Origin: a virus
UHGV virus genome: UHGV-0040380
Length of the DNA stretch: 27,512 nt
Strand: one strand, 5' to 3'
The notes under the pieces were generated by a model that saw only the letters and a list, made by a program, of their open reading frames with translations, was not told where the DNA came from and searched no databases. Made by a program: the position numbers and the translations under genes. Numbering within the stretch: position 1 is the stretch's first letter; each line of letters starts with the position of its first letter. Shown piece after piece: positions 2,084-25,119 of the stretch.

Positions 2084-4486
2084 TCACGCCCATGTCGCAT
2101 CTATGTAGAACGTTGGAGATGTAGTGGTGGACCCTTCAATCGATATTTGTCCTGTTGAAGCATTAATGGTGGCCATTGCCATGCCAAATGAAACGCCATC
2201 ATCAGTGAACGGTACAGGGACATTTTTGGTTACTTTTGGTCTGCACCACCTCGGAAGCGTTAGAACAGTATTGCCATTCGCAAATGAAGTGGCTGCCAGT
2301 TTAATATTAATTGAATTGGCAGTTAAACTTGACGGTGCCTGTACTGTTACGTTTGTTCCAGCCCACCATTGAACAGCTGCTCTTGGCGTGTAATCAACAC
2401 GCGACCACCAGTCGATAATGGCAGAGCAGATAATTTCCGCATACAGACGATACCCTAACTGGCTTTGGTGAATGTCATCACGCAGAAGTGGGTCGTATTG
2501 CGTGTTGAAATACTCTGGATATGGGGCCGGGAGCTGGTGAGTTGTTGTTACACAAATGACGTTATTGCCATATTTCATCATCTGGCGTTTACCAGCCTCG
2601 CGTAACTCCGCAACACCATCGTAATTTGCTGATGGCTGACCAGCCCCTCCAATAAATGACTGGCTATACCACATCCACGGCTCAACCCAAACAGGTACAC
2701 GCCCGAGACTGTTGCAATATAAGACAAACTCATCTATCAGTGCCGCCATATAATCGCCGTTTTGGTTTCCCTGCCCTTCGTTAGTTCCGGCAACCATAAT
2801 AACGATGTAAGCATCACCCGGCCCCTGAGCCTTCAGGAGATCTAACTGTTGCCTCATTGTCTGTCCGGCAACCGCCTTGTTTACAATGCTATATGAACGG
2901 TGTCCGTTCGCTCCATCCATTAATTGCGGAATGTACGAGCTGAACGCAGAAATGAAATCCTCAGCTGTACTATCACCGTGGATAAGGATATTAAGTGGAG
3001 GCTTACAGTGCACACCATTATCAGAGGTATAGCTAGTCACGCCAGTTACTCGTACAATCGTATTGGGAGCACTACTATTAGCTACAAATCCTACCTCGTA
3101 AACGTCACCTACCGCCGAAGTATCATATGGCAGTCTAAAGCTAACACCATTCATTGTAATTACAGCCCAGTTCTTTGACTGTAATGCCACCCCAATAGTA
3201 GCCTTACCGGGAGCGTAGGACAGCAACCCTCCAGGAAGTGAGAATGGAGAACCGTTTACTACCGCGCCTCCAATTGCTTTCTGCCGTACATCCCATTGTG
3301 GAGCACCAGGAGCGCCGTAGAACATCACCCATCCACCTGAGCACCGTAACACAATACCCACTTCATTAAGAGTATTAGACTCAGCACGAATATGTCCTGA
3401 CACATGCTCACCTACTGCAATGGGTACGAACAATCCACGGGTAACAGAATCGGGTAGAGCAAATAGGGCTGCCGTTTCGGAGCTAGCGAATAATGGACCC
3501 TGAGGCGTAAATGAATCCCCGTCCACTGCATAGACAACACAATCAGACCATTCCACTCGCTTCATGCGAATAGGGTTTCGGTTGAGGATGGCCTGCTTAG
3601 CCAGATAATCCACTTCTCCACCGGTTGTTGTGAAATTAAGATGGGAAAACTCAAAAGTGCATTCACCTTCAAACTTCAGCGACTTATAAAGCGAGTAAAG
3701 ATCGCTGTCGAATTTAAGAATGACGTTTTTATCAACGATTACACGGGAGTTTTGCAGATTTCCTGCCTGTGAGGCCGTTCCTGGTATTGTATAAGTTTTC
3801 TTTGTTGCAGAGTGGCAAGGGAAATAAACATAGCCATAGAGATTTACACTCTCCACCCATGCTGCAACAACGTTTGATTGATTGTAAGATGGCATAACGG
3901 TGATTGGTATCGGCTCAAATTTATCCACACCACCGATCTTTTTCCATCCGTCAGGCTGAGCAAGAAGAATCAGCACTTCACTGGCAGAAGCACTCGGAGG
4001 GAGAATGGCTATAGGCTGCCCACTGTCATCCCAGCCAAAAATCATATTCCGGCGACTTGATACCTTTGGCACCAGGTTTACACTGTTTTCAGGAACCCTA
4101 AGCGTATTTCTCTGAAGAGCACCGATGTTGAACATCGCATGCTGAATAAGCATGGTCAGGTAGTCGAATGCATCCTCATGGACCTCTGCAAAAAATTTCC
4201 CCTGATTTCTTAAATCAGTTTCCTGCACTGCTGGAAGGTTACGAGTGATTGATATTGTAATGCCTGGCAAAACAGGAGATGACGTAATAACGCTTCCACC
4301 GGAAGATAAGCCAGCACCTGTAACCATGTAATCTGTCCCCAGGCTCATTGGAGAAACAAGACCGTCAGCGGTTATTGTGCTTACATCAAGATCTGTGTCT
4401 TTAAAAATTCTGAAAGTATATGGGAATGATGTCGTGACTCCATTCCCGAGATACTCATTGTGGCTGATTTCGGTTGAGACTGTCAT
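2084..4486 (-). CDS. Tail fibre/tailspike: T7 gp17-like N-terminal adaptor domain, central receptor-binding region, C-terminal SGNH/GDSL hydrolase (esterase) domain
   Basis: 800 aa. The N-terminal ~110 aa follow the T7 tail-fibre attachment pattern (YLGNG..FPYTF...DY...I.I.R......DL, recalled from memory). Residues ~497-690 carry SGNH blocks: HGDST (Ser codon at 2969-2971), VAGTNEG, DDIHQS. GGAGA 6 nt upstream of the ATG at 4486. Confidence 0.8.
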   Translation of the reverse strand: MTVSTEISHNEYLGNGVTTSFPYTFRIFKDTDLDVSTITADGLVSPMSLGTDYMVTGAGLSSGGSVITSSPVLPGITISITRNLPAVQETDLRNQGKFFAEVHEDAFDYLTMLIQHAMFNIGALQRNTLRVPENSVNLVPKVSSRRNMIFGWDDSGQPIAILPPSASASEVLILLAQPDGWKKIGGVDKFEPIPITVMPSYNQSNVVAAWVESVNLYGYVYFPCHSATKKTYTIPGTASQAGNLQNSRVIVDKNVILKFDSDLYSLYKSLKFEGECTFEFSHLNFTTTGGEVDYLAKQAILNRNPIRMKRVEWSDCVVYAVDGDSFTPQGPLFASSETAALFALPDSVTRGLFVPIAVGEHVSGHIRAESNTLNEVGIVLRCSGGWVMFYGAPGAPQWDVRQKAIGGAVVNGSPFSLPGGLLSYAPGKATIGVALQSKNWAVITMNGVSFRLPYDTSAVGDVYEVGFVANSSAPNTIVRVTGVTSYTSDNGVHCKPPLNILIHGDSTAEDFISAFSSYIPQLMDGANGHRSYSIVNKAVAGQTMRQQLDLLKAQGPGDAYIVIMVAGTNEGQGNQNGDYMAALIDEFVLYCNSLGRVPVWVEPWMWYSQSFIGGAGQPSANYDGVAELREAGKRQMMKYGNNVICVTTTHQLPAPYPEYFNTQYDPLLRDDIHQSQLGYRLYAEIICSAIIDWWSRVDYTPRAAVQWWAGTNVTVQAPSSLTANSINIKLAATSFANGNTVLTLPRWCRPKVTKNVPVPFTDDGVSFGMAMATINASTGQISIEGSTTTSPTFYIDATWA

Positions 4487-19596: not shown

Positions 19597-21570
19597 TCAC
19601 TCCTGTTCACTGGCCTCTTTGGCCATCTTCAAATACTGTTCAGGGCAATGAGCCATAACGCGCTGAAACAGTTCCAGCGCCAGATTGCGTTGCCCCTCAT
19701 TAAATGCCATTGCCATAGCGTCCATCGGTGAGATAGCGGAAAACACACGGCCTTTCTCCAGCACCGACCAGACAACGCGACGCCCCTGTTCACTGCTCAT
19801 GACAAAGCGAATGTCATCAATTTCACGCTTCGCCATGTCACGTTGCTTACGGGCGTTTTCTTCTTTCAGTTGATCGTCTTCGTAATCTGTCATTGTGATT
19901 GCCCCCCCCTGACCACTAACTGCATTCGCCATAGCTGACAAAACACTCGGATCCGAAGTTTTAGCTTCGCTTAGCGTCTTGGCACCCTGTGCCGCCGCCA
20001 TCCCCATCGCCATCATTTGTTGCTGCTGTTGCTGCTGTGCCCGTTGCTGGCGAGCCTGCTCAACCTGTTCCTGCGGAACAATAACGGTTGGAGACACTCC
20101 GGACATATCAGCGAATGCATCGATCGCCTGATCAACGTTGAGTTTGTCGAGAGCTTCTGGTTTCGCTTGCGCAAGTTGACCAATGAAGTTAACCGTGGAC
20201 GCCAGACTGGACAGGCCGATAGACTTCTGCGCCTGAGCCATGACGGAAATGTATTCGACCTTCAGGGGCATGCCTTCCATCGCGTCAGGCGGTGGCGGCA
20301 GCATGTTTTTACGCACCATCATCGAGAAAGCGCGGTCAATGAGAGGATTAAGACATTCGTCGTTCAGACGCTCCAGAACCGGCCCCAACATCAGAAGTTT
20401 TTCTTCTTTCATTTCGATCACCGCTTCAACAGGCATCGAGCGGGTATTGATGTTCTGCAACATCATGAACAGATCGACAAAGTAGGCGCTGTTAATGATT
20501 TGACGAGTGTCCTGAATGTCTGCCACCAAATCTGCTGTACTGGGGTTAACCAGATAAGCAGGCCTGAAGCCATCCTGACCAGTAATCTGATCGATATACG
20601 TGATGTCGCCAGGAAGAAGGGAGGCTCGCTGATTCTTGAGGGAAGTCGGAGCAACCATCGGCGGATTGGTGGCTTTATCAATCAACTGCGACTTGCGCTT
20701 CTGGAGAAGCTGCAATGCCTTAACAGGTCCAAGAGCCAGCATACCCGGGCATGATGATCCATAAACATCTTCGCCGTTAACTTCCCAGCGCGGAGCCATA
20801 ATTGGAAACTCATCGAATCCGGACTCACGCAACAACTTGTCGTTATCGCCACCAACCTCGTAATAAACCGATTTGAATGGCTTGTTCTTGCTATCCAGCT
20901 TCGATGTATCGCGGTCAATGTTCGGGTAAACCGAGTGCATCACTTCAATCCACTTCTCGTAGGTGCCGCTTTCCCACATGCTTTTTACGTATTCGCTGAC
21001 GTTATTTAGCCCGAACTCCTGAACAAGCTGACGAACAGTCATAGAGAACTTGCGAAAACAGGTGTCCACACTGCCACGAGGTGAGTTAGCCAGGTAGTAA
21101 CTGCCTATCGGGAATGGCATTGTGCGAATAATGTCCTCGTCATCCTCCAGCACCGCCATTGCACCAGTGCTGTATGTTCCGAGGCTTCCGTATAACTGCG
21201 GCAGCGACTGATAGAGATTCGACTTATTGAACATATCGTTCATGCGGTTCTGCACCGCCTCAAGCCACAACTTAACAGGGCCATAATCCATCATTTCAGG
21301 ATCTGGCGTAGCCAGACGAAACCACGGACGCGCGGGGCTTGTGATGCCTGACATCATGCCGCTGGCGAGAGTGCGCGCCGCCATAGTCCCGGTCGAATCA
21401 ATAATGCGTGTATTCCGTCGATCGTTACGATTGACCTCAGAAGTCAGAAAGCGGGAACCACGCGGGTTGATGTAATCACTCAACTCGCGCCAGTGCGGCT
21501 CGAACGACTGACGCTCGCTTTCAAGTTGTGCGAACTGTTTGTTCAATCGCTCTTTAGTTGTTTCCGCCAT
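19597..21570 (-). CDS. Portal (head-to-tail connector) protein, T7 gp8-like, with a C-terminal extension
   Basis: 657 aa; contains a Q-rich ...QQQQQQQMMAMGMAAAQG segment resembling the T7 gp8 C-terminal region (from memory), followed by about 100 extra residues; precedes scaffold and capsid. Confidence 0.8.
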   Translation of the reverse strand: MAETTKERLNKQFAQLESERQSFEPHWRELSDYINPRGSRFLTSEVNRNDRRNTRIIDSTGTMAARTLASGMMSGITSPARPWFRLATPDPEMMDYGPVKLWLEAVQNRMNDMFNKSNLYQSLPQLYGSLGTYSTGAMAVLEDDEDIIRTMPFPIGSYYLANSPRGSVDTCFRKFSMTVRQLVQEFGLNNVSEYVKSMWESGTYEKWIEVMHSVYPNIDRDTSKLDSKNKPFKSVYYEVGGDNDKLLRESGFDEFPIMAPRWEVNGEDVYGSSCPGMLALGPVKALQLLQKRKSQLIDKATNPPMVAPTSLKNQRASLLPGDITYIDQITGQDGFRPAYLVNPSTADLVADIQDTRQIINSAYFVDLFMMLQNINTRSMPVEAVIEMKEEKLLMLGPVLERLNDECLNPLIDRAFSMMVRKNMLPPPPDAMEGMPLKVEYISVMAQAQKSIGLSSLASTVNFIGQLAQAKPEALDKLNVDQAIDAFADMSGVSPTVIVPQEQVEQARQQRAQQQQQQQMMAMGMAAAQGAKTLSEAKTSDPSVLSAMANAVSGQGGAITMTDYEDDQLKEENARKQRDMAKREIDDIRFVMSSEQGRRVVWSVLEKGRVFSAISPMDAMAMAFNEGQRNLALELFQRVMAHCPEQYLKMAKEASEQE

Positions 21571-21584
21571 TTCAATGACTCCGG

Positions 21585-21791
21585 TTACTGACCAAGCAGC
21601 GTTTTACCGCTGGTATTAGCGGTTGATGTGTCGCCCTGAGAACCGGTAAGCAGCGTAGAACTACGACCAGCAGCAGCGCGACGGCGACGTGTTTCTTCGT
21701 CGCGGGCATCAACAACGGCGGCATCCTGCTCCTGTGGTGCTGCCTGAACTTCTGGTGTTGCAGGCACTGATGGTGAGCTACCCATGCACAT
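21585..21791 (-). CDS. Small low-complexity protein upstream of portal
   Basis: 68 aa, A/T/S/R-rich; ATG with GGAG about 10 nt upstream; ends 14 nt before the portal start. A competing overlapping frame (21572-21811) has a TTG start and no SD. Confidence 0.35.
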   Translation of the reverse strand: MCMGSSPSVPATPEVQAAPQEQDAAVVDARDEETRRRRAAAGRSSTLLTGSQGDTSTANTSGKTLLGQ

Positions 21792-21881
21792 ATCAATGAC
21801 TCCGTACGCAATTAAATTATTACCAATTTAACCACATATGATTTATTTATCGTAGACAGTTGACATTTAACGCACGAATTA

Positions 21882-21896
21882 TTACCTTTCAGGTAA
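21882..21896. promoter_or_regulatory. Operator-like 15-bp dyad TTACCTTTCAGGTAA (copy 3, perfect)
   Basis: Perfect inverted repeat TTACCT-ttc-AGGTAA; a consensus -35 hexamer TTGACA lies 16 bp upstream (21860-21865) on the plus strand, the strand that carries the tRNA. Confidence 0.4.
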
Positions 21897-22218
21897 CCAA
21901 AGAGTTCATTCCGGTTACTAACCTGACTGGCTTGTCGTTAAATTGAACTGGTGGAGTGAGCTTTTATTTTGAGCAGTACGGCGTATGGCACATGCGCCGA
22001 TAGCGGTCTGGATACGTTTAAGGGGCACCCTCCCTTGCTCGGGCAAACGAACCAGGTAGCCGGAATGTGCAAGTCGAGCGGTTTTATTCCGCGCACGGGG
22101 ATTCACCATCCCGGCGATTCGGTGTGACGCCTCGGAAGAGACGAGGGTACAACGATGAGAGCATTTATGGAGCCGCGACAAAGTGTGGTGCCTTAACAGG
22201 CTAAGTGCTCTCAGCGTT

Positions 22219-22295
22219 GTGGCATTAGCTCAGTCGGACAGAGCAACCGCCTTCTAAGCGGTTGGTCGCAGGTTCGAATCCTGCATGCCACGCCA
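22219..22295 (+). tRNA. tRNA-Arg (anticodon UCU, reads AGA/AGG), phage-encoded
   Basis: Cloverleaf folded by hand: acceptor GTGGCAT / ATGCCAC, D-stem GCTC / GAGC, anticodon stem ACCGC / GCGGT with loop CTTCTAA, T-arm GCAGG-TTCGAAT-CCTGC, discriminator G plus encoded CCA. Resembles E. coli argU but has a different acceptor stem. Confidence 0.9.
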
Positions 22296-22338
22296 GAATC
22301 ACGCCTAAGGACCGTGATGCCAGAAGTTCCAGGTGCTT

Positions 22339-22381
22339 GGCGGTGATGGTTTCCCTTGAAGGACTATCACCGCCCTTTTTA
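22339..22381 (+). terminator. Rho-independent terminator downstream of the tRNA
   Basis: 9-bp stem GGCGGTGAT / ATCACCGCC (22339-22347, 22366-22374) followed by CTTTTTA. Confidence 0.55.
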
Positions 22382-22458
22382 CAGCAGGACGCCATTGCGA
22401 TGACTTCATGCTGTAAACCCGTACAGCCACGGAAGGCATAACTCATTGCTTCCAGTTC

Positions 22459-22482
22459 GCCCGGTTCGCCGGGCATTTTTTT
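22459..22482 (+). terminator. Strong rho-independent terminator 1 nt upstream of the RBS of the 22494 gene
   Basis: Stem GCCCGG / CCGGGC with TTCG tetraloop (22459-22474), then A plus TTTTTTT (22476-22482); the SD AAGGTGAG starts at 22483. Confidence 0.65.
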
Positions 22483-22493
22483 AAGGTGAGATT

Positions 22494-22850
22494 ATGAACG
22501 ACCAGCAAATCGAAAAAGAAATCGTTGAGAAAGGCAAAACCGCTCCGCGAGTTACGCCTCAATATATCGAAAGCATCATTCTTGAAGAGCATTTCTTTAC
22601 TGCTTATGACGGCATTCGTGCTGCCAATATGGGCGTTGGCGATTCATGGACAGCGCATAAATCTACAGACCTCCTGACTTTCTGCGTACTGGTGCTGAAG
22701 AATGGCTTCACCGTCACCGGAGAAAGCGCCTGTGCAAGCCCGGAAAACTTTGATGCAGAAATTGGTCGGAAGATTGCCCGGCAGAATGCTGTAAACAAAA
22801 TCTGGATGCTCGAAGGTTACTTGCTGAAGCAGAAGCTAAGCGAGCAATAA
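22494..22850 (+). CDS. Hypothetical protein (118 aa), moron in opposite orientation to the late genes
   Basis: ATG with AAGGTGAG SD; no signal peptide or TM segment; not recognised by me; bracketed by intrinsic terminators on both sides. Confidence 0.6.
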   Translation: MNDQQIEKEIVEKGKTAPRVTPQYIESIILEEHFFTAYDGIRAANMGVGDSWTAHKSTDLLTFCVLVLKNGFTVTGESACASPENFDAEIGRKIARQNAVNKIWMLEGYLLKQKLSEQ

Positions 22851-22854
22851 CACC

Positions 22855-22866
22855 GTGACATGTCAC
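22855..22866. repeat. 12-bp perfect palindrome GTGACATGTCAC (copy 2 of 3)
   Basis: Lies 5 nt after the stop of the 22494-22850 gene and 4 nt before the terminator stem. Confidence 0.6.
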
Positions 22867-22870
22867 AAAC

Positions 22871-22897
22871 AGCCAGCCTATGAGCTGGCTTTGTTTT
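22871..22897. terminator. Convergent (bidirectional) terminator between the 118-aa gene (+) and terL (-)
   Basis: Stem AGCCAGC / GCTGGCT (22871-22877, 22884-22890) with 6-nt loop, followed by TTGTTTT on the plus strand and GTTTGTG on the minus strand. Confidence 0.6.
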
Positions 22898-22940
22898 ATC
22901 CTCACCAGAGGATATCAACGACATTATCCCCACCAGCGGA

Positions 22941-24416
22941 TTAAGCATAGGGATCGTAATCTGTGATGGCCTTGCCTTGCTGGTTCTGCTGACCGGGAAT
23001 TCGCAGACGCTTCGACACAGGGAACGCAAACGTCAGCAGTAGCGCATCGCCTTTACCAGGAGAACGCCCAAGTCGCTCTTTGATATCTTCCTTCGGTTCG
23101 ATAACGATTTTACCGTCCACTCGAACTTTGTACTCTGCTGCCGACAGGTCGTCCGCTGTTTCCTGGTCATCAAGCATGCCGCCCAGCCTCAGCCATGTCT
23201 TGCATGAGTTGAACATCTCCCCACGCTTGTTGAGCATCTGCGGGTCAGTAGACGCGCCACCGAACTGAACAAGTTGCCATGTACGACCCCAGCCGTCACC
23301 GATTGACTTCAGACCAGTTCCGTAACCGAAGTCGATGAACACTGCGTCAGCCTGGTACTGGTCTTCAAAGTCAGCGATACGCTTCGCCATAATCAGATCG
23401 TCAGTGGTCTTGTTGCCGGTCCACAGCACCTTACTATGCAGCCCCTGCCGCAGGTATATCACAGCGTCATCAACACCGGAGTATGCCGGGTCAACGCCGA
23501 TTATCACCGGAGCATGTGCAACCTGCGCAGCGGTTACCACCCGTTTCATTGCCTCGTCAGTAAGGCCGGTAGGGATAAACTGCAATTCAGATGCATCCGG
23601 GAATATGCCGCGCACACGGATTTTAACGAAGTCGCTGTCTTCCCCGTAGTCATCAACCCATTTCTGCAACTGCTGTTTGTTAGTGCCTTCCACCGTCCGG
23701 CTGTCAATCTGCGCAGTTTTCCAGCGGTGTTTATATTTGCGGAAACATTCGCGAAAACGCCCGGTGTTACGTGTAGGGTTTCCGAACGCCACCCAGATAA
23801 TCTCAGTGTCTTCGTCCGTAAGCGCACCCTCGGCAACTTCCCACACCAGATCCGCAATGTTCGACGCTTCATCAAACACCACGATGATGCGTTTGCGCTC
23901 GTTGTGTAGTCCGGCGAATGCCTCGGTGTTGTGCTCAGACCAGGGGATTGCGTCAGCTCGCCACCGCTTGTCGTGCCCAGGATCATTGCTGTACATCGCG
24001 GTAGCGGTACAGGTAAACCAGTCTTTCGTGATAGCAAGGTTTGACCACTTGATAATTTCCGGCCAGGTCTTCGTTCGTAGCTGGTTGTCGGTGTTGGCGG
24101 TCACCACGACCTTACAATCCTCGCAAGTGGACATGCCCCAGTTGATCAGCATTGAGATGAATGCGGATTTACCAATACCGTGACCAGAAGCACGTGCCAG
24201 CATAAGCGGCTGATAACGCGTCTCTGGATTCTGCAGGTGATCACGTATCTCTCGGAACGCATCGGCCTGCCACTGACGTGGGCCGGTGGCATGTGCCAGT
24301 TCAGTCCCCTCTTCCCCCCACGGGAACGCATAGAGGGCATAGCCAAGCGGATCGTGAGTGAACCCTGCAATATCCTCGATTAACTGCTCTTCAGGAGATA
24401 ACGCTGTATCTGTCAC
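22941..24416 (-). CDS. terL: Terminase large subunit
   Basis: 491 aa; Walker A-like GHGIGKS, Walker B-like IIVVFDEAS, C-terminal nuclease-like region (IIGVDPAYSG, DAVFIDFGYG); start overlaps the terS stop. Confidence 0.9.
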   Translation of the reverse strand: MTDTALSPEEQLIEDIAGFTHDPLGYALYAFPWGEEGTELAHATGPRQWQADAFREIRDHLQNPETRYQPLMLARASGHGIGKSAFISMLINWGMSTCEDCKVVVTANTDNQLRTKTWPEIIKWSNLAITKDWFTCTATAMYSNDPGHDKRWRADAIPWSEHNTEAFAGLHNERKRIIVVFDEASNIADLVWEVAEGALTDEDTEIIWVAFGNPTRNTGRFRECFRKYKHRWKTAQIDSRTVEGTNKQQLQKWVDDYGEDSDFVKIRVRGIFPDASELQFIPTGLTDEAMKRVVTAAQVAHAPVIIGVDPAYSGVDDAVIYLRQGLHSKVLWTGNKTTDDLIMAKRIADFEDQYQADAVFIDFGYGTGLKSIGDGWGRTWQLVQFGGASTDPQMLNKRGEMFNSCKTWLRLGGMLDDQETADDLSAAEYKVRVDGKIVIEPKEDIKERLGRSPGKGDALLLTFAFPVSKRLRIPGQQNQQGKAITDYDPYA

Positions 24417-25009
24417 TGATTACTATCCTGACGTTCTTTGAGTCGCTTCCTGGCTGCTGCTATGCGATCAGCAATTGTCACATTCACATTAACATCCAGA
24501 CGTTCTTTGAACGCGTTGACATCAACATGCTTACCAATCAGCTCAAGGTTCTTCACCTTGTCAGGCCATTTAATTTTTTTGAGGATTGTCTCTATCGAAT
24601 CCTCGTTCATGTTCATGATGGTCGATGACAGATCAAAGCCACTAAGCGTAGTGCGCCAGATTTTCGGCCACTCGCGGATTGGCTTAAGGCTCCCATCGTC
24701 GTTGAGGATGTCGATCACGTCCATCTGGTCGATCTCCACCAGGCGCATGAGAACGTAATCAGCACTGACGCGCATTCGTTTGTTGCGCTCCTCCATCAAC
24801 TCGGCAATCCGTTTTTGAATGCGTTCATCGCGCATCATGACACTGGCTTTAACTGCCGCTGTATTTGGGGAGAATCCTGCGTTAATCGCTGCCTGAGTCT
24901 GGTTTTCAGGCGTTTTGATGTATGACTGGCAATAAGCCTCCTGCATTGCTGTGAGCGGCTTAAATTGCGTTGATTTGCGTTTATAGGTTTTAGGTTCAGC
25001 AGGCATCAT
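24413..25009 (-). CDS. terS: Terminase small subunit
   Basis: About 198 aa from the ATG at 25009 (GGTGG SD); terminase small-subunit-type N-terminal HTH region (QTQAAINAGFSPNTAAVKAS). The ORF-track TTG start at 25087 would run through a terminator hairpin and direct repeats. Confidence 0.8.
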   Translation of the reverse strand: MMPAEPKTYKRKSTQFKPLTAMQEAYCQSYIKTPENQTQAAINAGFSPNTAAVKASVMMRDERIQKRIAELMEERNKRMRVSADYVLMRLVEIDQMDVIDILNDDGSLKPIREWPKIWRTTLSGFDLSSTIMNMNEDSIETILKKIKWPDKVKNLELIGKHVDVNAFKERLDVNVNVTIADRIAAARKRLKERQDSNQ

Positions 25010-25017
25010 AACCACCG

Positions 25018-25046
25018 TGGTAATAGTTACCGTTGTGGTAATAGTA
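25018..25046. repeat. Tandem direct repeats GTGGTAATAGT x2 (7-bp spacer) in the terS leader
   Basis: Identical 11-mers at 25018-25028 and 25036-25046, between the upstream terminator and the terS RBS. Confidence 0.5.
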
Positions 25047-25051
25047 CCATG

Positions 25052-25078
25052 CAAAATAAAGCCGCCATAGTTGGCGGC
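25052..25078 (-). terminator. Rho-independent terminator upstream of terS (separates accessory genes from the packaging/late genes)
   Basis: Stem GCCGCCA / TGGCGGC (25061-25067, 25072-25078) with 4-nt loop; minus-strand T-tract TTTATTTTG follows. Confidence 0.6.
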
Positions 25079-25119
25079 AGTATTCAAAGTCCATCAAATT
25101 CATCATGCATAATCTACTC

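Follow-up and report, generated by a model that had tools for sequence, protein, structure and literature searches.

How does a small phage gene come to be expressed when its ribosome-binding site directly follows a strong intrinsic terminator, and what does such a gene encode? We looked into both questions for the 118-amino-acid (118-aa) open reading frame (ORF) at positions 22494 to 22850 on the plus strand of virus genome UHGV-0040380, a stretch of 27,512 nucleotides (nt) called the window below. The window represents a phage or prophage of Escherichia coli of the epsilon15/phiV10 type (Uetakevirus). Its region 22150 to 22950 shares 99.4% identity with a prophage of E. coli ETEC4085 and 96 to 98% with phiV10-type phages over the common parts. 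A first-pass annotation, made from the sequence alone, had described the gene as impossible to assign and as a conditionally expressed moron. We found that the protein is a member of the Acb4 (PF13876) family and that the gene, taken together with its surroundings, is probably a cargo gene of a tRNA operon, placed behind two terminators (T1 and T2).

The protein proved to be recognizable after all. It matched the Pfam family PF13876 (Phage_gp49_66) over profile positions 1 to 82 of 82 (E value = 1.7e-34, 118.6 bits, with a curated gathering cutoff of 27 bits), it matched PHROG 322 as well, and it carries the NCBI name "Gp49 family protein." A weak Pfam match to Glyco_hydro_100 (E value = 0.05) was under the cutoff and was disregarded. 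The sole credible sequence match in the PDB was 9E4W, anti-CBASS 4 (Acb4) of Bacillus phage SPO1, where CBASS stands for cyclic oligonucleotide-based antiphage signaling system; the single sequence gave an E value of 0.006, and a profile built from 36 homologs gave 5e-5. Furthermore, Chang et al. (bioRxiv 10.1101/2024.12.30.630793) list the identical 118-aa sequence in their Table S3, as UniProt A0A0C5F232 from E. coli. The same table holds the proteins of phiV10 (gp03, Q287B5), epsilon15 (A0AR14), N4 (gp49), and Sf6 (gene 66), all of them catalogued Acb4 homologs. The gene is an already catalogued Acb4 homolog, and the core of the earlier observation is already known.

Structure prediction, which the first-pass annotation had proposed along with remote-homology searches as a check, led to the same protein. 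The AlphaFold2 model of the monomer (predicted local distance difference test score, 83) shows three antiparallel strands with flanking helices and, after them, a long C-terminal helix (helices at residues 3 to 12, 22 to 28, 37 to 44, 56 to 60, and 88 to 116; strands at residues 29 to 36, 62 to 68, and 73 to 77). This is the fold of the SPO1 Acb4 protomer, with its three antiparallel strands, N-terminal helices, and long C-terminal helical region. In a Foldseek search of the PDB, the top 13 matches were all chains of 9E4W (probability 1.00, target-normalized template modeling score 0.60 to 0.70), and the later ones were noise. In the alignment with SPO1 Acb4, the ENFDxEIGR motif was conserved (ENF(D/N)xEIGR for the pair), and the pocket residues F48, F62, and I66, which provide base-stacking and van der Waals contacts, were kept as F72, F86, and I90. 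Both are small phage accessory proteins, although their identity is only about 24 to 29% and the window protein has a 20-residue N-terminal extension and a variable insert at about residues 38 to 58. Taken together, the Pfam, catalogue, and structure evidence makes membership of the family secure.

Acb4 is described as a tetrameric sponge that sequesters 3′3′-cGAMP and related CBASS signals, and PF13876, with 1,331 proteins, has been equated with its homologs (Chang et al., bioRxiv 10.1101/2024.12.30.630793). The paper reports that 3′3′-cGAMP was bound by eight of eight purified homologs, that homologs from phages of Gram-negative hosts also bound 3′3′-c-di-AMP, and that specificity differed in those homologs (bioRxiv 10.1101/2024.12.30.630793). 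Judged by this kinship, the window protein very probably sponges immune nucleotides; its ligand binding and its tetramer are predicted. The anti-defense role that had been guessed for genes in this position is borne out by a protein of an anti-CBASS family.

We then turned to the surroundings of the gene. Nearly all genes of the window, those for the virion among them, are on the minus strand, and the gene belongs to a plus-strand island between the large terminase gene (terL) and the portal module. The features of this island are the following.

21815 to 21824 and 21877 to 21886, plus strand: two copies of the direct repeat AATTATTACC, 62 bp apart, in the divergent intergenic region.
21860 to 21888, plus strand: leading sigma-70 promoter candidate in the island (TTGACA, 17 nt, TACCTT), with the top weight-matrix score.
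21977 to 22218, plus strand: conserved structured leader RNA, the roughly 240 nt before the tRNA gene, with its core at 21977 to 22150.
22219 to 22295, plus strand: tRNA-Arg, anticodon UCU (ARAGORN; Rfam tRNA, 73.3 bits).
22339 to 22382, plus strand: intrinsic terminator T1, a 14-bp stem (22339 to 22374) followed by CTTTTT (ΔG, −22.0 kcal/mol).
22383 to 22458, plus strand: spacer between T1 and T2, without a promoter, with small hairpins ACAGCA...TGCTGT (22381 to 22414) and GGAAG...CTTCC (22431 to 22453).
22459 to 22482, plus strand: intrinsic terminator T2, GCCCGG-UUCG-CCGGGC (22459 to 22474), an A, and T7 (22476 to 22482) (ΔG, −11.2 kcal/mol); left boundary of the cargo slot.
22483 to 22490, plus strand: Shine-Dalgarno (SD) sequence AAGGTGAG, whose first base directly follows the U-tract of T2; part of the conserved backbone, not of the cargo.
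22494 to 22850, plus strand: acb4 homolog (PF13876, "Gp49 family protein"), 118 aa, ATG start; predicted tetrameric cyclic-dinucleotide sponge, anti-CBASS.
22855 to 22899, plus strand: right boundary of the cargo slot, the palindrome GTGACATGTCAC (22855 to 22866) and then T3 (22871 to 22890 plus UUGUUUUAU).
22871 to 22890, plus strand: intrinsic terminator T3, followed by TTGTTTTAT (ΔG, −11.5 kcal/mol); it faces the convergent terL.

The anatomy that had been read from the letters was present: the ORF with its strong SD, the GC hairpin with a UUCG loop and U7 immediately before that SD (T2), a second terminator upstream (T1), and a third downstream (T3). The tRNA-Arg(UCU) gene directly upstream of T1 was omitted from the first-pass annotation.

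No convincing promoter was found between T1 and the ORF, in agreement with what had been claimed, and two kinds of scan concurred. A consensus scan for sigma-70-like sites found no promoter-like site in 22296 to 22493. A weight-matrix scan of the plus strand from 21760 to 22500 placed 12 of its 12 best candidates in 21790 to 21970, and no plus-strand candidate in 22296 to 22493 reached 6.3, the lowest score of the 12 listed; chance alone yields a score of 6 or more roughly every 124 nt in this window. The hexamers of the top candidate were kept in E. coli, Klebsiella, and Salmonella relatives (TTGACA/TTGACC/TTGGCA and TACCTT), with a diverged spacer. The second copy of AATTATTACC overlaps the −10 of this candidate and belongs to a palindrome (TTACC-TTTCA-GGTAA). 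For the core 9-mer ATTATTACC, the window has three matches, where 0.1 is expected, and the AATTATTACC motif is conserved in the E. coli, Klebsiella, and Salmonella relatives. The two copies may be binding sites, that is, an operator, for a regulator, and because the repeat overlaps the −10, the island promoter may be regulated.

T1, T2, and T3 were conserved across the E. coli, Klebsiella, and Salmonella relatives. T1 was nearly invariant in phages phiV10, ZX5, phiv142-3, TL-2011b, and PAS61. The T2 stem was found in compensatory variants (GCCCGG/CCGGGC, GCCCAC/GTGGGC, and GCCTGG/CCGGGC) that all kept U7. The phiV10 authors had assigned the T3 hairpin, mostly backbone and present as a variant hairpin in TL-2011b, to terL as its downstream terminator. 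Taken alone, the count of terminator-like sites in the 4-kb region was not above chance (5 versus 3.4 ± 2.0 expected); it is the conservation and the compensatory changes in T2 that indicate that T1 to T3 are selected structures. Since the tRNA-Arg gene lies directly upstream, T1 is first of all a tRNA-gene terminator. We also considered a riboswitch or attenuator in which an alternative fold would compete with T2. The minimum free energy and centroid folds of 22296 to 22510 consisted of independent hairpins with T2 intact, and since nothing in the fold competes with T2, classical attenuation is unlikely. Read on the minus strand, neither T1 nor T2 has a U-tract, and T3 has just the weak tail GUUUGUG, so late transcription could cross the island. 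Plus-strand transcription could, as far as the arrangement of these hairpins tells, be stopped three times before running antisense into terL.

To see which parts of the island are fixed and which vary, we aligned it with phiV10, ZX5, phiv142-3, TL-2011b, and PAS61. The backbone was about 97 to 100% identical in all five, both through the SD and from GTGACATGTCAC and T3 onward, while the insert between differed or was absent. The conserved part runs from upstream of the tRNA gene through T1, the spacer, T2, and the SD, and identity between related phages stops just past the U-tract and SD. The SD precedes differing cargos in the relatives and is also present in the "empty" phage phiv142-3 (as AAGGTGTG), where the slot holds an 8-codon remnant only, and in Salmonella phage SPN1S, which has the same architecture with another cargo and a T2 of the form GCCCAC-UUCG-GUGGGC with U7 and AAGGTGA kept. 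The slot corresponds to positions 22491 to 22854 of the window. In the window, phiV10, and ZX5 it is filled by Acb4 alleles that are close to identical in the C-terminal half and divergent in the N-terminal half. The phiV10 gene for gp03 shares the slot, T2 with the SD, and T3 with the window, and differs from the window allele mainly in the N-terminal half. The nucleotide similarity of Sf6 to the window starts about 3 nt before the start codon, and Sf6 shares no upstream island. When 22494 to 22700 was compared with two other loci (L001 and L002), codons 1 to about 60 were strongly diverged, with insertions and deletions at about residues 38 to 58, and the C-terminal half was near-identical DNA. 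Such mosaic alleles suggest recombination or diversifying selection on the N-terminal part.

The slot of TL-2011b holds an unrelated 115-aa ORF (AEW24577.1, positions 2943 to 3290 of locus L004), and that of PAS61 holds an unrelated 140-aa ORF (WMX18984.1, positions 2812 to 3234 of locus L005). A census of 32 tRNA-Arg-type loci from IMG/VR and phage records yielded, besides remnants, Acb4 (13 loci), a 283-aa membrane/coiled-coil protein (6 loci, for example, IMG/VR locus L117), a 173-aa protein (4 loci), the 140-aa protein (4 loci), and a 146-aa protein (1 locus, IMG/VR L083). The 140-, 115-, 283-, and 146-aa proteins had no Pfam match. The 173-aa cargo is Tad2-like (PF11195, E value = 4e-26; solved Tad2 structures, E value = 4e-16). 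In Klebsiella phage ST512-KPC3phi13.3, for instance, it lies after tRNA-Arg and T2 (QBQ71862.1, positions 3511 to 4032 of locus L135), and it matches the solved structures of Tad2, ModTad2, and AcrIIA7, with an N-terminal extension of about 75 residues that has no assignment. Tad2 is an anti-Thoeris sponge whose ligands are of the gcADPR class. Tad2 (PF11195/DUF2829), which is not present in this window, is like Acb4 a small immune-nucleotide sponge in the identical slot, but it has an unrelated fold and another ligand class. That two unrelated families of immune-signal sponges alternate at one position indicates that the slot is a site for anti-defense cargo, and the proteins without assignment that share it become, by association, candidate new anti-defense proteins.

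The alignments and the census bear out the claim that the gene is accessory, since it varies among otherwise collinear phages. The term moron fits less well. A moron in the classical sense of Hendrix and Juhala has its own promoter and terminator and is expressed from the prophage. The gene resembles the morons of lambdoid phages in being an extra gene, present or absent between conserved neighbors, dispensable for virion production, and followed by a terminator (here T3). It differs from them in having no promoter of its own, in using an SD that belongs to the backbone, and in lying downstream of terminators in a tRNA operon. The mosaic boundary at the SD and start codon leaves no room for a promoter inside the cargo. 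Because the promoter of its own is missing, the gene is not a classical moron.

How, then, would the gene be transcribed? The unit would run from the sigma-70 promoter at about 21860 to 21888, through some 85 nt, the structured leader, tRNA-Arg(UCU), T1, the spacer, T2, and the backbone SD, to acb4 and T3. In this arrangement acb4 would be an exchangeable cargo gene, the last of a small accessory operon on the plus strand that lies antisense between the portal and terminase genes. RNA polymerase starting at the tRNA promoter would have to pass T1 and T2 to express acb4, and T1, T2, and T3 would also keep the operon from running antisense into terL. With the only good plus-strand promoter lying upstream and none in the cargo, the anatomy implies that polymerase must read through T1 and T2 if acb4 is to be expressed. 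The route we favor, with some reserve, is that transcription starts at the upstream promoter and passes both terminators, and expression of acb4 in the lysogen would be low. A tight limit in the lysogen would make biological sense: Acb4 has been reported to trigger a guard system that monitors c-di-AMP (PMC13640721), and a sponge that also binds this nucleotide may trip such systems.

Several points weigh against this account. Leakage past a −22 kcal/mol hairpin and a GC/UUCG/U7 terminator should yield little mRNA, and a stoichiometric sponge needs many copies. As to the ligand, residues K36, E49, V56, Y57, N63, T70, and K81 of SPO1 Acb4 correspond to L60, T73, C80, A81, D87, I94, and M105, and among these the residues that read guanine or contact phosphate (K36, E49, Y57, T70, and K81) are not kept. 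With several ligand-contact residues not conserved, the specificity and range of ligands cannot be read from the sequence. In addition, the text of Chang et al. (bioRxiv 10.1101/2024.12.30.630793) available to us does not state which eight homologs were purified, and the clade of the window protein may lie outside them.

The scarcity of mRNA expected from leakage would be relieved if the leader RNA upstream of the tRNA gene were a cis-acting processive antiterminator, a functional analogue of the put RNA of phage HK022. T1 and T2 would then be read through efficiently, acb4 would be expressed only from this promoter, and other transcripts would be blocked. We consider this doubtful, while noting that the leader itself is real. 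It has the following parts.

21977 to 22150, plus strand: leader core, with hairpin P1, helix P2, a 19-mer, hairpin P4 (UCACCA loop), hairpin P5 (GAAGAGA loop), and two possible pseudoknots.
22055 to 22073, plus strand: the invariant 19-mer GGTAGCCGGAATGTGCAAG, inside the leader core.

A closing stem, GAGAGCA/TGCTCTC, seen by eye, reaches the tRNA. There is no credible ORF in the 240 nt before the tRNA gene, and a scan of 21400 to 23100 against Rfam 15 returned only the tRNA at E values of 1 or less and no family for the leader. We assessed covariation with 41 representatives of less than 93% mutual identity and a model of four helices and two pseudoknots. Of the cells, 98% were paired, and 12 pairs had compensatory changes (88 cells); none of 500 shuffles reached the observed values, and slid controls were 24 to 51% paired. 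These results indicate that the leader is a well-supported structured RNA outside Rfam.

The leader is also widespread. The 19-mer GGTAGCCGGAATGTGCAAG was found in at least 120 IMG/VR contigs, and a covariance model of the leader (R1) found exactly one copy per phage genome searched; neither the window nor the complete phiV10 genome gave a second copy, whether in the early operons or elsewhere. An unannotated stretch of another prophage, between a cI-like repressor gene and yfdP, is 83% identical to the leader, with insertions and deletions and one replaced segment. Further copies were found in lambdoid phages (mEp460, cdtI, Ayreon, 2H10, and Stx2c and Stx2a phages), between trnI and ban in P1 and P7 (the ban operon), and in Salmonella and Klebsiella Uetakevirus-like phages, with an element size of about 170 to 240 nt across contexts. 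The copies were located as follows.

Locus L007, 1330 to 1573: leader copy.
Locus L009 (P1), 2500 to 2679: leader copy.
Locus L010 (mEp460), 2500 to 2672: leader copy.
Locus L136, 5000 to 5172: leader copy.
Locus L137, 4000 to 4172: leader copy.
Locus L135, 2999 to 3151: leader copy.

The last 73 nt of the leader region (22150 to 22222) are about 96% identical to unannotated DNA in many E. coli genomes free of this prophage (for example, NZ_CP029369.1, positions 3951533 to 3951605); these matches are leader copies in other (lambdoid) prophages.

Position is what most recommends an antiterminator. The leader is always in the sense orientation, at the start of an operon or inside it. In Uetakeviruses it is followed by the tRNA gene, two terminators, and the promoterless cargo. 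In the lambdoid phages its place is always immediately downstream of cI and of a PL-type promoter, with one or two strong terminators and then early-left genes following; in mEp460, Stx2a_1447, Ayreon, and prophage L007, these terminators (−19 and −10 kcal/mol) come before the first of the early-left genes. The lambdoid stretches examined contain no annotated N gene, and phiV10 has no annotated N- or Q-type antiterminator. An unidentified put-like RNA has already been proposed for a phage with mEp460-type immunity and no N homolog (PMC12315714). The leader shares with the put RNAs of HK022 and HK639 a structured element in the nascent transcript near an early-type promoter, upstream of terminators and without an annotated N, and short motifs (ACGGCG...CAUGCGUCG and GGAAGAG, common to both putL sites). 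It differs from them in size and build: about 170 to 240 nt, at least four helices, and two possible pseudoknots, versus about 70 nt and two stems, that is, more than twice the size of put. Model R1 had no match on the put regions of HK022 (L012) or HK639 (L133) at E values of 10 or less, and blastn against put gave nothing significant, just words of 7 to 9 nt. We therefore rejected membership in put and kept the analogy. The P1 copy fits poorly, as no terminator was detected after it, between trnI and ban. With all contexts pooled, terminators downstream of the leader were barely commoner on the same strand than on the opposite-strand control (78 of 112 versus 64 of 112 loci); a first scan, for perfect stems, missed long imperfect hairpins. 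It is a tentative suggestion, and one that we would not bet on, that the leader represents an undescribed class of phage RNA (in Uetakeviruses, in PL leaders of lambdoid phages without an annotated N, and in the ban operon of P1 and P7) that acts as a protein-independent antiterminator and licenses promoterless anti-defense cargo.

Alternatively, acb4 might have a promoter of its own that escaped recognition, between T1 and the SD or overlapping T2, which might depend on a phage factor or an alternative sigma factor or give a near-leaderless transcript, so that expression would be independent of the terminators. Our scans detect sigma-70-like sites only, and the spacer (22383 to 22458) is conserved in the relatives, which could reflect a function other than its hairpins. 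However, the weight matrix found no such candidate, PAS61 lacks 33 nt of the spacer and still keeps T2, the SD, and a cargo, and a transcript begun anywhere upstream of T2 still runs into it, since T2 and the SD are just 1 nt apart. We consider such a promoter improbable.

A different kind of alternative leaves the operon as it is and concerns the target. The protein could have the Acb4 fold while its clade acts mainly on something other than CBASS, whether c-di-AMP, other immune nucleotides, or RNA. [quoted passage not shown] Against this stand the hydrophobic pocket residues and the ENFDxEIGR motif, which are conserved, and the binding of 3′3′-cGAMP by all eight homologs tested across the family (Chang et al.); a mainly non-CBASS target has, in our estimate, slightly less in its favor than a hidden promoter.

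Finally, acb4 might be a transcriptionally silent remnant, cut off by the tRNA-operon terminators in front of it. The two strong terminators upstream, the lack of a detected promoter, and the "empty" relative phiv142-3 could be cited for this, but it is very improbable given an intact ORF with a strong SD, several intact alleles that differ mainly in the N-terminal half, different intact anti-defense cargos in the same slot, and the spread of the island with this allele: of 5,426 complete E. coli genomes, at least 181 matched 80% or more of an 801-nt query spanning it.

The genes that border the island are the following.

24413 to 25087, minus strand: terminase small subunit, given as context.
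22941 to 24416, minus strand: terminase large subunit (terL), convergent with acb4.
19597 to 21791, minus strand: portal gene and a small gp3-like ORF (21585 to 21791), divergent from the island promoter.

The portal ORF of the window (19597 to 21570, minus strand) has 657 aa. The portal gene (559 aa) and the next gene (98 aa) are separate, with a 4-nt overlap, in phiV10, in ZX5, and in the ETEC4085 prophage (99% identical); the window ORF appears to be an in-frame fusion or to reflect a 1-nt difference at the junction. A minus-strand ORF of 83 aa (22225 to 22476), annotated as a coding sequence for a hypothetical protein in phiV10 (PhiV10p04), ZX5, and TL-2011b, lies antisense over tRNA-Arg, T1, and T2; judged by inspection, it is very probably spurious.

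The annotation of the gene is routine; experiments would be worthwhile on the regulatory architecture and the leader RNA. A promoterless slot behind two conserved terminators, with alternation of Acb4, Tad2, and proteins without assignment, and the leader RNA appear, in the sources available to us, to be undescribed. For phiV10/epsilon15-like prophages, the "Gp49 family protein" receives a clean annotation as an Acb4-type immune-nucleotide sponge. A slot that holds Acb4 (anti-CBASS), Tad2 (anti-Thoeris), or proteins without assignment supplies a short, well-bounded list of candidate new anti-defense genes. The promoterless cargo behind two conserved terminators raises a testable question, namely, how temperate phages time and limit the expression of a sponge, which matters because Acb4 can trip c-di-AMP guard systems (PMC13640721). 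The leader lies in the PL leader of lambdoid phages without an annotated N, whose mechanism of early antitermination is an open question (PMC12315714). If the leader were indeed an antiterminator, the slot would be a site for regulated anti-defense cassettes and a place to look for new anti-defense genes.

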